From: a phage
Length of the DNA: 64,000 bases
Sequence record: PZ242158.1
Reading direction: 5' to 3' (one strand)
Shown: positions 56,810 through 59,165 of the stretch, one piece after another
Layout: every line of letters starts with the position of its first letter
Position numbering within the stretch: position 1 is the stretch's first letter
The notes under the pieces: generated by a model
Databases searched by the model: none
The model's input: the letters and a program-made list of their open reading frames with translations, nothing else
Told to the model about the DNA's origin: nothing
Made by a program: the position numbers and the translations under genes

Positions 56810-57190
56810 TCAGTAGATGTTTTGTTTAATCTCTATTCCAAACTTCTTGAATGAGTCAGCAGCAAGCATAAATTTACGAGCTGCCGATGGATTAGAAGTA
56901 TGCACGAAAATAATCACGTTGTCAATAAGTGGTGGCTTTCCGAATACAAGTTTCTCCTCTAGCGCAGAGAAGCAGTCGTACCCTTCAAGCACTTCACCTA
57001 GATCATTGTCAAAATGCCACTCAGAAACGCGCCTGTAGAGCTTTCTATTATCGTTAATAAAATCCATGAACTCAGAAGAGTTCTTCAGCCAAAGAGCATC
57101 TTGGATTCCGTAATTTGACGGATCTCTCAAGTCATCTAGCCACACAATCAACTTCTTCATTGCATATAGTCCTCGTTGTGAAAATAGCAA
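56810..57190 (-). CDS. hypothetical protein
   Basis: ORF 126 aa. Confidence 0.45.
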   Translation of the reverse strand: MLFSQRGLYAMKKLIVWLDDLRDPSNYGIQDALWLKNSSEFMDFINDNRKLYRRVSEWHFDNDLGEVLEGYDCFSALEEKLVFGKPPLIDNVIIFVHTSNPSAARKFMLAADSFKKFGIEIKQNIY

Positions 57191-58092
57191 TCAAGTATCT
57201 CACGGCGTTCCTGCTCCAGGAGGCAGTTCCACACATCTTCTGTGTAATTGCTACGAATGAAGTTTACCATGCCATAAAACTCTTCGTCAATACGTTTAAA
57301 GATATCATCATCCCAAATCTTCCAAGCTTTACCCCTCATTACGGCCTTCCGTGCCAAATAGTATGGAGACTTGATCTTCAGCTGTAGGTCATAAGGGTAG
57401 TAAGGCTTACGGATCATATACCCTTCGCCCCTTGTTTCTGCAGCTAATTCTTTTGCATAGCTGAACGGGATTTCACGCACAGTGTGAGGACGTTTTGCAC
57501 CAAGGTATTTGGCAATCCCATCTAAAGCTGCTTCTGGTAGCATTATTCCAGAATCATTATATCTGCAACCTATCAAATATGCGCCATGGTCTTCTTGAAC
57601 AATATGCGGATCTGAAGGGTGACAAATTTCAAACATGAATGTCATGTTTTCATTGCCCATAACCTTCTTGATAAGATCTAAATTACCACATTGCTCTTGG
57701 ATGGTTTCCTTTGCAAGGTTACAATATGGAGAATCAAGAGACCCGGTTGTTGAGAACAATAGGTCACCTTTATGAGATGATACCACACCAAGGAATCCGT
57801 TCTTTTTCTCTACCGCAGTCACAAGCTTATTGTCAGGCAGGTTGGTGGAGTTTTCTCCCAAGTTAAACACTTTTGTGAAGGGCCATGCCACAACATTTCC
57901 TTCATTACCTACAACAATGCCTCGGCACTCCAGTAAACGAGGGGACAAATGCCATAAATTGTTGTAAAATACTTTTCTAGCATATTTATAGATCTTTAAC
58001 CCGAGATCTGGGTAATACCTACTGGTTACAAGACCTTTGTCAACTAGGTCGTCTGCATTAAAATACTTCATCATACGTTCCTCATTTGTCAT
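57157..58092 (-). CDS. RNA ligase, T4 Rnl1-like
   Basis: LLECRGIVV, KVFNLGEN, nucleotidyl-transfer motif EKKNGF, FMFEICHP, GEGYMIRKP..LQLKIKSPYY parallel T4 RnlA. Confidence 0.7.
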   Translation of the reverse strand: MTNEERMMKYFNADDLVDKGLVTSRYYPDLGLKIYKYARKVFYNNLWHLSPRLLECRGIVVGNEGNVVAWPFTKVFNLGENSTNLPDNKLVTAVEKKNGFLGVVSSHKGDLLFSTTGSLDSPYCNLAKETIQEQCGNLDLIKKVMGNENMTFMFEICHPSDPHIVQEDHGAYLIGCRYNDSGIMLPEAALDGIAKYLGAKRPHTVREIPFSYAKELAAETRGEGYMIRKPYYPYDLQLKIKSPYYLARKAVMRGKAWKIWDDDIFKRIDEEFYGMVNFIRSNYTEDVWNCLLEQERREILDCYFHNEDYMQ

Positions 58093-58183
58093 TTTGTCAG
58101 TCTATCCTGCCACACAAATAACCTAGTGTCAACACTTGAAATTAACAAAACAGTTAGATATACTATCGTTGAAATTAAAACGG

Positions 58184-58603
58184 ATGGTCACTATGTCTAA
58201 AATGCTATATATCGTGCGTGGTCTACCAGGGTCTGGCAAATCAACACTGGCAAATGCGCTATCTTTAGAGGGTCTGTATCCACATTTTGAGAACGACATG
58301 TTCTGGTATGACGATGACGGCAATTACAACTGGGATGCAAGTAAAGTAACACTCGCAGCGAAATGGTGCAAAGATAACGTAGAAGATATGATGCGTATGG
58401 GATACGACCGTATCGTGGTAAGTAATACGTTTACAAAAGAAAAACATGTGCAGGAATATGTTGACATGGCAATCAGTCATGGGTATAGTTATACCGTGAT
58501 CGTGGTTGAAAACCGCCACGGTAATAAAAGCATTCATGATGTTCCAGACAAGGTTGTGGATCGTATGGAACGCCAGCTTAAAAACTGCATTAAACTTAAA
58601 TGA
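58184..58603 (+). CDS. P-loop polynucleotide kinase-like protein
   Basis: Walker A GLPGSGKST; small kinase fold like T4 Pnk N-domain. Confidence 0.55.
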   Translation: MVTMSKMLYIVRGLPGSGKSTLANALSLEGLYPHFENDMFWYDDDGNYNWDASKVTLAAKWCKDNVEDMMRMGYDRIVVSNTFTKEKHVQEYVDMAISHGYSYTVIVVENRHGNKSIHDVPDKVVDRMERQLKNCIKLK

Positions 58604-58610
58604 GGAATGT

Positions 58611-59165
58611 ATGAAATACTTTGTAACAAGCGACACACACTTTCTCCACCAGCGGGTCATGGAGTTTGATTCATGTCAAAAACACAGATCTCAGTATGAT
58701 CACAATCTTGACAGTATGAATGCGGGAATCATCGCCGAATGGAACTCTGTTGTGTCACCTGCAGACACTGTGTTCCACTTGGGAGATATTGCGTGCACTA
58801 ATGATAAGAATATCAACAACTTACTTCCAGATATTCTAAATATGTTGAACGGACATATTATTCTTGTTCGTGGCAACCATGACACAAGGACGACTGTCAG
58901 AATTATGAAAGAGTTCGGTCATGAGGTTGTAGATTATTACGAGCTTCGCCACAACAAGAATTTGATCTGTATGAGCCATTACCAATTTGCAAAGTGGAAC
59001 AGAAAGCCTCACGGATCAGTCCAACTGTTCGGTCATGCTCACGGAACCACACAACAGTTGTTTGGCAGGCAGCTTGATGTCGGTTGGGATGTGTGGGGGA
59101 GACTCTTACCATTAGAAGAGGCATACCGTATTGCAATGAGTTTTGCTATTGACAGCGGGGAGTAA
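58611..59165 (+). CDS. calcineurin-like metallophosphoesterase
   Basis: DTHF, GDI, GNHD phosphoesterase motifs. Confidence 0.65.
   Translation: MKYFVTSDTHFLHQRVMEFDSCQKHRSQYDHNLDSMNAGIIAEWNSVVSPADTVFHLGDIACTNDKNINNLLPDILNMLNGHIILVRGNHDTRTTVRIMKEFGHEVVDYYELRHNKNLICMSHYQFAKWNRKPHGSVQLFGHAHGTTQQLFGRQLDVGWDVWGRLLPLEEAYRIAMSFAIDSGE

Follow-up and report, generated by a model that had tools for sequence, protein, structure and literature searches.

Results

Organization of the locus

The window, that is, the whole stretch of 64,000 nucleotides analysed here (PZ242158.1), derives from an E. coli phage of the rV5-like Vequintavirus type, and its region 56000-60000 has 99.8% identity to Escherichia phage A6-1 and 97.1% identity to phage V5. 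Six genes at 55313-59165 lie in two divergent operons. The minus strand carries the genes of a predicted Rnl1-type ATP-dependent RNA ligase (57157..58074, 305 aa), a cREC (cyclic-phosphate-processing Receiver-like) domain protein (56810..57160, 116 aa), a sirtuin of the Sir2 family (56040..56801, 253 aa) and a MazG-like nucleotide pyrophosphohydrolase (55313..56026, 237 aa), and the plus strand those of a predicted minimal P-loop kinase of the polynucleotide-kinase clade (58193..58603, 136 aa) and a binuclear metallophosphoesterase of the aq_1665-like subfamily (58611..59165, 184 aa). The initial annotation of this DNA had proposed a split RNA-repair module of three genes, namely the ligase, the kinase and the phosphoesterase. 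All three ORFs are present on the strands that it gave, but the extent of the module has to be widened, since the cREC, Sir2 and MazG-like genes are co-transcribed with the ligase.

The gaps between the ligase, cREC, Sir2 and MazG-like genes are -4, 8 and 13 nt, the cREC start overlapping the ligase stop by 4 nt, and the four genes form a tight operon with the ligase at its head and the MazG-like gene last. A terminator-like G+C-rich hairpin (55289..55306, minus strand), which is a pattern match from a consensus scan, sits 7 nt past the MazG-like stop and is likely the end of this transcription unit. The two operons are separated by a divergent intergenic region of about 100-118 nt (58075..58192), in agreement with the short divergent promoter gap described earlier; a sigma-70-like promoter site on the plus strand (58136-58164) has 10/12 matches to the consensus, a consensus match only, whereas for the minus strand reading by eye gave a perfect -35 and only a weak -10. 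Outside the enzyme module, seven tRNA genes detected with ARAGORN and Rfam (62085..62897, plus strand) begin 2.9 kb from the phosphoesterase stop, close to the 3 kb first estimated, and correspond to Arg-UCU, Tyr-GUA, Ser-UGA, an unusual Lys-UUU, Thr-UGU, Met/Ile-CAU and Pro-UGG. PADLOC returned no informative match among the six proteins.

The ligase, the kinase and the phosphoesterase

The ligase gene had been placed at 57157-58092, a minus-strand ORF of 311 aa. The gene itself stands, but its start is probably at 58074, 18 nt inside, because a GAGGA Shine-Dalgarno precedes the ATG at that position and public records begin there too, the start at 58092 adding 6 codons; residue numbers refer to the 305-aa form. 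The protein matched Pfam RNA_lig_T4_1 (PF09511) over the whole 227-position profile (E=1.1e-14; 55.3 bits, cutoff 28.3), as well as PHROG 562, "RNA ligase and tail fiber protein attachment catalyst" (E=7e-66). Motif I is represented by K90 in EKKNG, motif III by E149, motif IV by E217-G218 and motif V by K233/K235, and all of these residues, together with the upstream R51, K68 and F70, are invariant in an alignment of 26 homologues. The motif residues align to K99/E159/E227/G228/K240/K242 of T4 Rnl1 and the upstream ones to R54/K75/F77, while T4 Rnl1 K119 aligns to a Thr. Searched as single sequences against solved structures, the ligase and the kinase gave no match, and family profiles were needed for both; with its profile, the best sequence match of the ligase was T4 Rnl1 itself (2c5u, E=3e-14), positions 48-236 aligning to T4 residues 51-250. 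The AlphaFold2 model (mean pLDDT 93) gave Rnl3, T4 Rnl1 and Trl1-LIG as best Foldseek matches (~1e-12), and the best PDB folds were all RNA ligases.

The assignment of the ligase to the Rnl1 type holds. The C-terminus is a short four-helix module, and the profile search of the PDB detected nothing that corresponds to the C-terminal domain of T4 Rnl1, the alignment leaving T4 residues past ~250 unmatched. The NCBIfam equivalog model of T4 RnlA (TIGR02308) scored 38.8 bits against a cutoff of 242.25, over model positions 32-251 of 373 only, and a miss by so far would place the window ligase outside the T4 RnlA orthologue group. In T4 Rnl1 the C-terminal domain confers tRNA specificity; since no counterpart is detectable in the window ligase, tRNA is put forward as its substrate as a prediction only.

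Public records start the kinase gene at 58193, and the ORF first annotated began at 58184. Its product matched Pfam AAA_33 (E=1.1e-10), PHROG 2071 (E=9e-59) and PHROG 505, "polynucleotide kinase" (E=5e-10), and carries a Walker A motif (GLPGSGKST), an ENRH motif that includes R108, and D35 as the general-base Asp. G10, G13, G15, K16, T18 and D35 are invariant in the family and S17 is nearly so. An hhalign comparison with T4 Pnk (probability 96%, E=3e-9) aligned D35 with T4 Pnk D35. Searched against the PDB, the family profile reached a stand-alone Mucorales RNA 5'-OH kinase (9d8a), which was the best sequence match, Pnkp1, T4 Pnk and C. thermocellum Pnk, the matches to these solved polynucleotide kinases being weak (E from 7e-6 to 1e-2). 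For the kinase model (pLDDT 85), the best Foldseek matches were C. thermocellum Pnk, T4 Pnk, the tRNA kinase PSTK and Pnkp1, and the TM-scores normalised to query length were 0.72-0.78 to 4gp6, 4jt2, 1ly1 and 2ia5, C. thermocellum Pnk and T4 Pnk among them, and only 0.47-0.51 to UMP-CMP and adenylate kinases. The modelled fold is clearly nearer to polynucleotide kinases than to NMP/dNMP kinases or AvrRxo1. Substrate-binding or essential residues of T4 Pnk, according to the mutational literature, are R38, D85, R122 and R126. Window R108 aligns to T4 R122 and K112, which is not conserved, to R126, while W38 is found in place of R38 and N78 in place of D85.

A dNMP or adenylate kinase, an identity that had been named as speaking against a repair role, is unlikely because the window encodes a separate dNMP kinase candidate (44646-45263; phrog_139, E=2.6e-44) within a nucleotide-metabolism cluster. 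The dNMP-kinase reading was rejected on this ground and because a Pfam DNMK gene lies directly beside a phosphoesterase-kinase fusion on contig L245. The 136 aa comprise a kinase domain only, with no HAD-type (DxDxT) 3'-phosphatase domain, as the initial annotation had held in setting the phosphatase of this locus apart from that of T4 Pnk, and the related BASEL genome has no other polynucleotide kinase/phosphatase annotated.

The phosphoesterase scored above the cutoffs of both Pfam Metallophos_2 (29.0 bits, cutoff 27) and Metallophos (27.9 bits, cutoff 21.5) and matched PHROG 547 (E=1.3e-51), so that profile searches recovered each of the three expected families, RNA ligase, AAA_33 and Metallophos. 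Its motifs SDTHxxH, GD, GNHD, H123 and GHxH make up a full binuclear metal site, and D8, H10, G58-D59, G88-N89-H90, H123 and G141-H142-x-H144 are invariant among 26 homologues. The closest solved relative is the uncharacterised aq_1665 (PDB 1xm7; E=1.7e-10 with the single sequence, 3e-23 with the profile), after which the profile, run against the PDB at E<=10, listed GpdQ, YfcE, Rv0805 and ApaH but no lambda-phosphatase or Pnkp phosphatase chain. The PPP signature (GDxxDRG, GNHE) is absent, the protein having GDIA without DRG, and GNHD. We therefore regard the enzyme as calcineurin-type at the level of the superfamily, as first stated, but outside the PPP, lambda-phosphatase and Pnkp-type subfamily, so that the comparison with bacterial Pnkp does not extend to the subfamily and a protein Ser/Thr phosphatase finds neither a signature nor a match in its favour. 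It is predicted to be an end-healing enzyme acting on 2',3'-cyclic phosphates or 3'-phosphates.

Additional genes of the ligase operon

The cREC protein matched Pfam cREC_REC (E=5.7e-14) and PHROG 1479 (E=5e-34) and has the conserved motifs LDD, DNDLGE and HTSNP; its role has been described as a prediction (PMC7824862; PMC9503650). The sirtuin (Pfam SIR2, E=6.9e-28; PHROG 2162, E=1.5e-108) keeps the catalytic HG motif but lacks the usual zinc ribbon, because no cysteine occurs between the HG and KPNVVFFGE motifs. NCBIfam CobB-type models matched it below their cutoffs, and PADLOC gave no match to a defence-type Sir2. The MazG-like protein was assigned by PHROG 671 (E=1.9e-21) and had no Pfam match; a member of the MazG superfamily has been named as part of this neighbourhood (PMC9503650).

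Conserved neighbourhoods and fusions

The collections searched contain hundreds of ligase, thousands of kinase and over a thousand phosphoesterase homologues. Among 80 ligase-anchored phage loci from IMG/VR, with neighbours counted within 7 kb, the kinase and the phosphoesterase were each found in 63 and the three genes together in 52, while cREC, Sir2 and MazG were each found in only 9-11. Anchoring on the phosphoesterase instead (n=79) recovered the ligase in 41 loci and the kinase in 53. In related phages of about 146 kb (six loci: L003, L005, L007, L009, L010 and L038), the order is ligase-cREC-kinase-Sir2 on one strand. tRNA or tmRNA genes lay within 7 kb of the ligase in 22/60 phage loci, a raw count without a background rate.

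The genes are also joined covalently. Kinase-ligase fusions occur in ten phage loci and in Neisseria, Moraxella and Cardiobacterium, in which the same phosphoesterase subfamily is encoded just downstream and a Ro60/TROVE gene upstream. Two phosphoesterase-kinase fusions (P0313 and P0333) lie next to an Rnl1-type ligase gene and a distinct dNMP kinase gene, and in Leptolyngbya-type cyanobacteria a single kinase-Metallophos-ligase protein is encoded beside RtcB. For kinase-ligase-fusion loci that lack the phosphoesterase, Pfam searches of the neighbours in L034 found no substitute 3' phosphatase. The ligase, the kinase and the phosphoesterase are functionally linked, whether the loci are anchored on the ligase or on the phosphoesterase, and both sorts of fusion and the bacterial protein with all three domains bear this out.

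Discussion

The family assignments of the ligase, the kinase and the phosphoesterase hold, and the repair module first proposed for this locus is supported. Probably these three genes are a widespread phage core of a split pathway for healing and sealing RNA, which would most likely mend cut tRNAs, presumably those cleaved by anticodon nucleases. The 136-aa kinase would phosphorylate the 5'-OH and the metallophosphoesterase would open and remove a cyclic or terminal phosphate to leave a 3'-OH, after which the Rnl1-type ligase would close the break by the usual route via lysyl-AMP and AppRNA. As cREC and the phosphoesterase coexist in the window, either could be the handler of the cyclic phosphate. 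In Vequintavirus-like phages, cREC, the zinc-ribbon-less sirtuin and the MazG-like enzyme may add a NAD-linked branch to the ligase operon.

Such a pathway would follow the same logic as T4 Pnkp and Rnl1 against PrrC, with a 5' kinase, removal of the 3' phosphate and an Rnl1-type ligase, and both the kinase domain and the nucleotidyltransferase domain of the ligase have homologues in the T4 enzymes. Unlike in T4, the kinase is a stand-alone protein of 136 aa without the HAD phosphatase domain, 3' healing is assigned to the metallophosphoesterase, and the ligase has 305 aa against 374 aa, the T4 C-terminal domain being the part with no detected counterpart. The same three enzyme classes are found in bacterial Pnkp systems (C. 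thermocellum Pnkp with Hen1; Capnocytophaga Pnkp1/Rnl/Hen1); by fold, the kinase comes nearest to C. thermocellum Pnk, and the cyanobacterial homologues of the ligase combine the three classes in one polypeptide. The window system differs in being split into three genes on two strands and in having a phosphoesterase of another, aq_1665-like subfamily, whose window-derived model gave no match to the internal domain of the cyanobacterial tri-domain protein; the annotation of the related BASEL genome lists no Hen1 methyltransferase. With fungal and plant Trl1 and Tpt1, the module shares the ligase Pfam family PF09511, a fold match equal to that with T4 Rnl1, the Mucorales enzyme as best PDB match of the kinase profile and, in the same operon, an NAD-using sirtuin, but it has neither a 2H cyclic phosphodiesterase nor Tpt1/KptA.

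The locus is not new. Phage V5 is the prototype of exactly this neighbourhood, which was described in silico and predicted to be an NAD-using RNA repair system (Iyer, Burroughs, Anantharaman, Aravind, Viruses 2022 14:1977; PMC9503650 section 3.7.3). All components named there, namely the sirtuin, a T4-like tRNA ligase, cREC, the kinase and MazG, plus an optional calcineurin-like phosphoesterase, are found in the window in the same arrangement, and it is the same locus, a rediscovery and not a new system. The earlier survey took the sirtuin as its focus and describes the phosphoesterase as "occasional", and the sequence itself is no different; seen from the ligase, the kinase and the phosphoesterase are a near-constant core to which sirtuin, cREC and MazG are lineage-specific additions. 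We found no experimental work on this module, on RNA repair in Vequintavirinae/rV5 or on phage tRNA repair with a metallophosphoesterase, nor any paper assaying an enzyme of the module or a member of its phosphoesterase subfamily.

The proposal of Iyer et al. (2022) extends the core explanation and does not exclude it. In a route like that of Trl1 and Tpt1, cREC or the phosphoesterase would open the cyclic phosphate to a 2'-phosphate, the ligase would then seal, and the sirtuin would remove the 2'-phosphate by ADP-ribose transfer from NAD+, like KptA/Tpt1, the phosphoesterase, cREC and MazG clearing the ADP-ribose cyclic phosphate product. Besides the published proposal, this route is favoured by the close spacing of the ligase-cREC-Sir2-MazG genes up to the terminator-like hairpin, by the one-strand order of the ~146 kb phages and by the ligase fold, which matches fungal Trl1-LIG as well as T4 Rnl1. 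Against it, the core would work without cREC, Sir2 and MazG in most phages, given their presence in so few of the 80 loci, and in L027 cREC directly adjoins phosphoesterase-ligase-kinase on an 8.5-kb contig with no Sir2. Moreover, activity on RNA 2'-phosphate is not known for any sirtuin and cREC has not been characterised (PMC9503650), and that the sirtuin really has this activity seems to us possible but doubtful.

It is quite improbable that the kinase and the phosphoesterase are small-molecule enzymes of a nucleotide or NAD conflict that are only loosely tied to the ligase, the phosphoesterase degrading cyclic-nucleotide or ADP-ribose-derived signals and the kinase acting on a nucleotide or NAD. 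Past aq_1665, the characterised proteins nearest to the phosphoesterase are indeed the phosphodiesterases GpdQ, YfcE and Rv0805, the kinase comes near the threshold of Pfam Zeta_toxin (22.1 bits, cutoff 22.3) with AvrRxo1 as a lower-ranked fold match, and the neighbouring Sir2, cREC and MazG point to NAD chemistry. However, the covalent fusions of the kinase to an Rnl1-type ligase and of the phosphoesterase subfamily to the kinase, the tri-domain cyanobacterial protein, the higher TM-scores of the kinase to polynucleotide kinases than to NMP kinases and AvrRxo1 (about 0.5) and the lack of a relevant PADLOC match all argue against such a role.

Encoded 2.5 kb away, an ATP-dependent DNA ligase (53403-54686) suggests DNA end processing, in which the kinase and the phosphoesterase would heal nicks for that ligase in the manner of eukaryotic PNKP. 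In favour of this, DNA is a substrate of T4 Pnkp too, 32/80 ligase-anchored loci have an ATP-dependent DNA ligase within 7 kb, and the phosphoesterase has a weak match to NCBIfam PdeM, a ligase-associated DNA-damage endonuclease (20.5 bits, cutoff 150). Nevertheless, a DNA ligase accompanies the phosphoesterase in only 2 of the 79 loci anchored on it, whereas 41 of them have the RNA ligase and 53 the kinase, a count on which the DNA-repair reading was rejected; the ligase partner in the fusions is an RNA ligase, and the bacterial versions adjoin the RNA repair genes Ro60/TROVE or RtcB, which makes a DNA role very improbable. Least probable of all is that the ligase homologue serves mainly in tail-fibre attachment, cf. 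the second activity of T4 gp63: the name borne by PHROG 562 and by many GenBank records was passed down from T4 gp63 by homology, whereas the catalytic residues are all invariant across the family, the gene is surrounded by genes of nucleic-acid metabolism and shares its operon with cREC and Sir2, away from the tail genes at 10-46 kb (BASEL record), and bacterial homologues are fused to the kinase.

Cleavage of tRNA is increasingly recognised as an anti-phage strategy, as in PrrC, RloC, PARIS, some retrons, Cas13 and Cas12a3, and no phage repair pathway other than T4 Pnkp/Rnl1 has, to our knowledge, been examined in detail. The trio of ligase, kinase and phosphoesterase is far more widespread than the T4 arrangement and occurs also in Neisseria, Moraxella and cyanobacteria. 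The concept is not ours, the type of locus having been published with V5 as its prototype (PMC9503650), but the module is directly testable because phages of the BASEL collection that infect E. coli K-12 carry it. A more far-reaching reading, which we consider unlikely, would be a new NAD-dependent RNA repair alongside the core in Vequintavirus-like phages, with the sirtuin in the place of Tpt1/KptA to remove an RNA 2'-phosphate, cREC as cyclic phosphodiesterase and, as a further component, the phage tRNA-Lys(UUU), whose atypical long variable arm might let it escape anticodon nucleases; as NAD-dependent repair has been published as a prediction (PMC9503650), only experimental confirmation would be new.

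With regard to the tRNA cluster, an anticodon-loop intron, for which a heal-and-seal ligase would be needed, was considered for the odd 97-nt tRNA (62554-62650) and rejected, the extra ~27 nt lying in the variable region and the anticodon loop being intact (Rfam).

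A probable split RNA repair pathway

The ligase gene (minus strand, down to 57157), kinase gene (58193-58603, plus strand) and phosphoesterase gene (58611-59165, plus strand), which the initial annotation had joined into one repair module for cut tRNAs, were all recovered by ORF reading and by Pfam and PHROG matches. Only the start codons proposed for the ligase and the kinase needed small shifts: public records start the ligase at the ATG at 58074, which has a GAGGA ribosome-binding site upstream, and the kinase at 58193. In a sequence search, 120 phage records matched window positions 56000-60000, with 99.8% identity for Escherichia phage A6-1 and 97.1% for phage V5/rV5 (Vequintavirus), and the gene names in public records are "RNA ligase", "polynucleotide kinase" or ATPase, and "putative phosphoesterase". 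The trio is best read as an RNA repair pathway of the heal-and-seal kind, split over separate genes, in which the kinase would heal 5' ends of RNA, the phosphoesterase would heal 3' ends and sealing would fall to the Rnl1-type ligase; its presumed substrates are cut tRNAs. The core of the earlier proposal was correct, but it missed the additional genes of the operon and drew the likeness to Pnkp too narrowly. This type of locus is already known, in silico, for the prototype of the same phage genus, and we found no experimental studies of the module in the literature.

The ligase matches Pfam RNA_lig_T4_1 (E=1.1e-14) and PHROG 562 (E=7e-66), and has 540 homologues of about 300 aa, the majority from phage contigs of 90-150 kb. 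T4 Rnl1 was the top solved sequence for the family profile (E=3e-14), in an alignment ending at T4 residue 250, and the residues K90, E149, E217-G218, K233/K235, R51, K68 and F70, invariant among 26 diverse members aligned, pair in that order with T4 K99, E159, E227/G228, K240/K242, R54, K75 and F77. By structure comparison, the confident AlphaFold2 model (mean pLDDT 93) matched Rnl3-, Rnl1- and Trl1-type RNA ligases (E ~1e-12), with far poorer matches to Rnl5, Rnl2 and DNA ligases. Profile match, invariant motifs and ligase-like fold all bear out the Rnl1-like assignment made before. Beyond motif V, ~70 residues fold into a small module of four helices in place of T4's larger C-terminal domain, and the protein falls below the cutoff of the NCBIfam T4 RnlA equivalog, which argues, from sequence and model, for an Rnl1-type ligase that is not a strict orthologue of T4 RnlA.

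The kinase (136 aa) belongs to a very large family of at least 7,989 matches, most of them 128-140 aa long, in which the P-loop, D35 and the SNT and ENRH motifs are constant. It matches Pfam AAA_33 (E=1.1e-10), PHROG 2071 (E=9e-59) and PHROG 505, "polynucleotide kinase" (E=5e-10). The folds nearest to its model (pLDDT 85) are C. thermocellum Pnk, T4 Pnk, the tRNA kinase PSTK and Pnkp1, with TM-scores normalised to query length of 0.72-0.78, against ~0.5 for NMP kinases. Besides a Mucorales RNA 5'-OH kinase (E=6.6e-6), the kinase profile reaches Pnkp1, C. thermocellum Pnk and T4 Pnk, with alignments that span much or most of their kinase domains; adenylate kinases are matched at the P-loop only. 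Alignment by hhalign with the kinase domain of T4 Pnk, whose sequence was verified (probability 96%, E=3e-9), pairs D35 with T4 D35 and R108 with T4 R122, and places W38 and N78 at T4 R38 and D85, respectively. A separate dNMP kinase candidate lies at 44646-45263 on the minus strand (phrog_139, E=2.6e-44; no Pfam match), within a nucleotide-metabolism cluster where it adjoins an NT5C-like nucleotidase gene (44059-44652), near that of a ThyX-like thymidylate synthase (42874-43857).

The phosphoesterase (184 aa) scores over the cutoffs of both Pfam Metallophos_2 and Metallophos and matches PHROG 547 (E=1.3e-51), and all the binuclear-site motifs are invariant in its family. Its sole close solved relative is aq_1665, an uncharacterised Aquifex protein, which the single sequence finds at E=1.7e-10 and the profile at 3e-23. 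In the profile search it is followed, at weak scores, by the phosphodiesterases GpdQ, YfcE and Rv0805. Because aq_1665 is closest and no lambda-phosphatase or Pnkp phosphatase chain appeared to E<=10 in searches of solved structures, the comparison with bacterial Pnkp holds for the superfamily but not for the subtype, and a PPP-type protein phosphatase is likewise unsupported.

Linkage and gene fusions in phages

Models built iteratively from the window proteins were run over the ORFs of 80 IMG/VR loci with ligase homologues. They found the kinase in 63/80, the phosphoesterase also in 63/80 and the complete trio in 52, most commonly in the order phosphoesterase-ligase-kinase on a single strand. 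Kinase and ligase are fused in ten of the 80, and for one viral locus (L034) Pfam confirms the fusion. Among 79 further loci anchored on the phosphoesterase, 53 have the kinase, 41 an RNA ligase and two a DNA ligase. The 1,207 matches of the phosphoesterase family include two phosphoesterase-kinase fusions, whose halves are 39% and 44% identical to the window proteins, and one of which has an Rnl1-type ligase on one side and, on the other, a DNMK gene (Pfam) of its own. Together, the two kinds of fusion link all three members of the trio.

Of 60 phage loci, 22 have a tRNA or tmRNA gene no more than 7 kb from the ligase (raw count), a suggestive proximity. In a 64.6-kb viral contig, an array of 34 tRNAs encloses the ligase and phosphoesterase genes (L057 1940-13515). 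Phage contigs with kinase-ligase fusions (L039-L043; e.g., L039 10399-10801) have a tmRNA gene 3-5 kb downstream, with the tag AANDANYGDYALAA, and no phosphoesterase was detected in their flanks.

Additional genes of the ligase operon

Overlooked in the initial annotation, cREC, sirtuin and MazG-like genes follow the ligase on the minus strand. The start of cREC (56810-57160; Pfam cREC_REC, E=5.7e-14) overlaps the ligase stop, and the sirtuin (56040-56801; Pfam SIR2, E=6.9e-28) and the MazG-like gene (55313-56026; PHROG 671, E=1.9e-21) come next. The successive spacings are -4, 8 and 13 nt, and past the last gene, at 55289-55306, stands a hairpin that resembles a terminator. The sirtuin keeps the NAD-binding GAGxS and catalytic HG motifs and lacks the usual four-cysteine zinc ribbon, since there is no cysteine from HVHG to KPNVVFFGE; it matches NCBIfam CobB-type models below cutoffs only, and none of the PADLOC defence Sir2 models. 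The cREC was defined as a predicted cyclic-phosphate-processing domain tied to RNA ligases (Iyer et al. 2021, PMC7824862) and was stated to be experimentally uncharacterised in the work that proposed the sirtuin to act like KptA/Tpt1 (Iyer et al. 2022, PMC9503650). Vequintavirus-like phages would have this extra NAD-linked branch on top of the trio, with a role for the sirtuin and a division of labour between phosphoesterase and cREC that we infer. These three genes occur with the ligase in just 9-11 of the 80 loci, all of them ~146-kb relatives. The ligase-centred view makes a modest addition, with kinase, phosphoesterase and ligase as a widespread core and sirtuin, cREC and MazG as lineage-specific extras, and brings to light both kinds of fusion.

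Bacterial versions

Many genomes of Neisseria, Moraxella, Kingella, Eikenella and Cardiobacterium encode a kinase-ligase fusion, usually with a phosphoesterase of the same subfamily just downstream. In a chromosomal locus of Neisseria flavescens (L172 4738-10404), the one in which the flanks were read, Ro60/TROVE-vWA stands upstream and Nudix downstream of the fusion, an unassigned 176-aa ORF and the aq_1665-like phosphoesterase; the Neisseria-type locus has the look of a cellular cassette for RNA repair, so far uncharacterised. Leptolyngbya sp. PCC 7375 has kinase, Metallophos and Rnl1-type ligase in one protein of 712 aa (L215 5726-7864), with an RtcB ligase gene 1.6 kb downstream (9466-10647), and no Hen1 was found in the four neighbouring ORFs scanned. 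This three-domain protein near RtcB is found in Leptolyngbya-type cyanobacteria.

An unusual tRNA and a variable site

The tRNA cluster reported near the trio was confirmed as seven tRNAs (62085-62897). One of them, on the plus strand (62554-62650), is 97 nt long, with a normal cloverleaf and the anticodon UUU (Lys); it scores 35.5 bits with Rfam, receives no type from ARAGORN and is labelled tRNA-Lys in the BASEL record. A small hairpin of ~27 additional nt extends its variable region into a long arm like that of class II tRNAs. Because PrrC and PARIS target tRNA-Lys(UUU), it could be a nuclease-evading variant. The repair pathway itself may act against anticodon nucleases.

Elsewhere in the window, the endolysin has as its neighbour an HNH endonuclease of 253 aa (51962-52723, minus strand), which matches the AP2 domain weakly. 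The site seems variable among close relatives, since MaxTheCat and A6-1 carry a shorter homing-endonuclease gene there.
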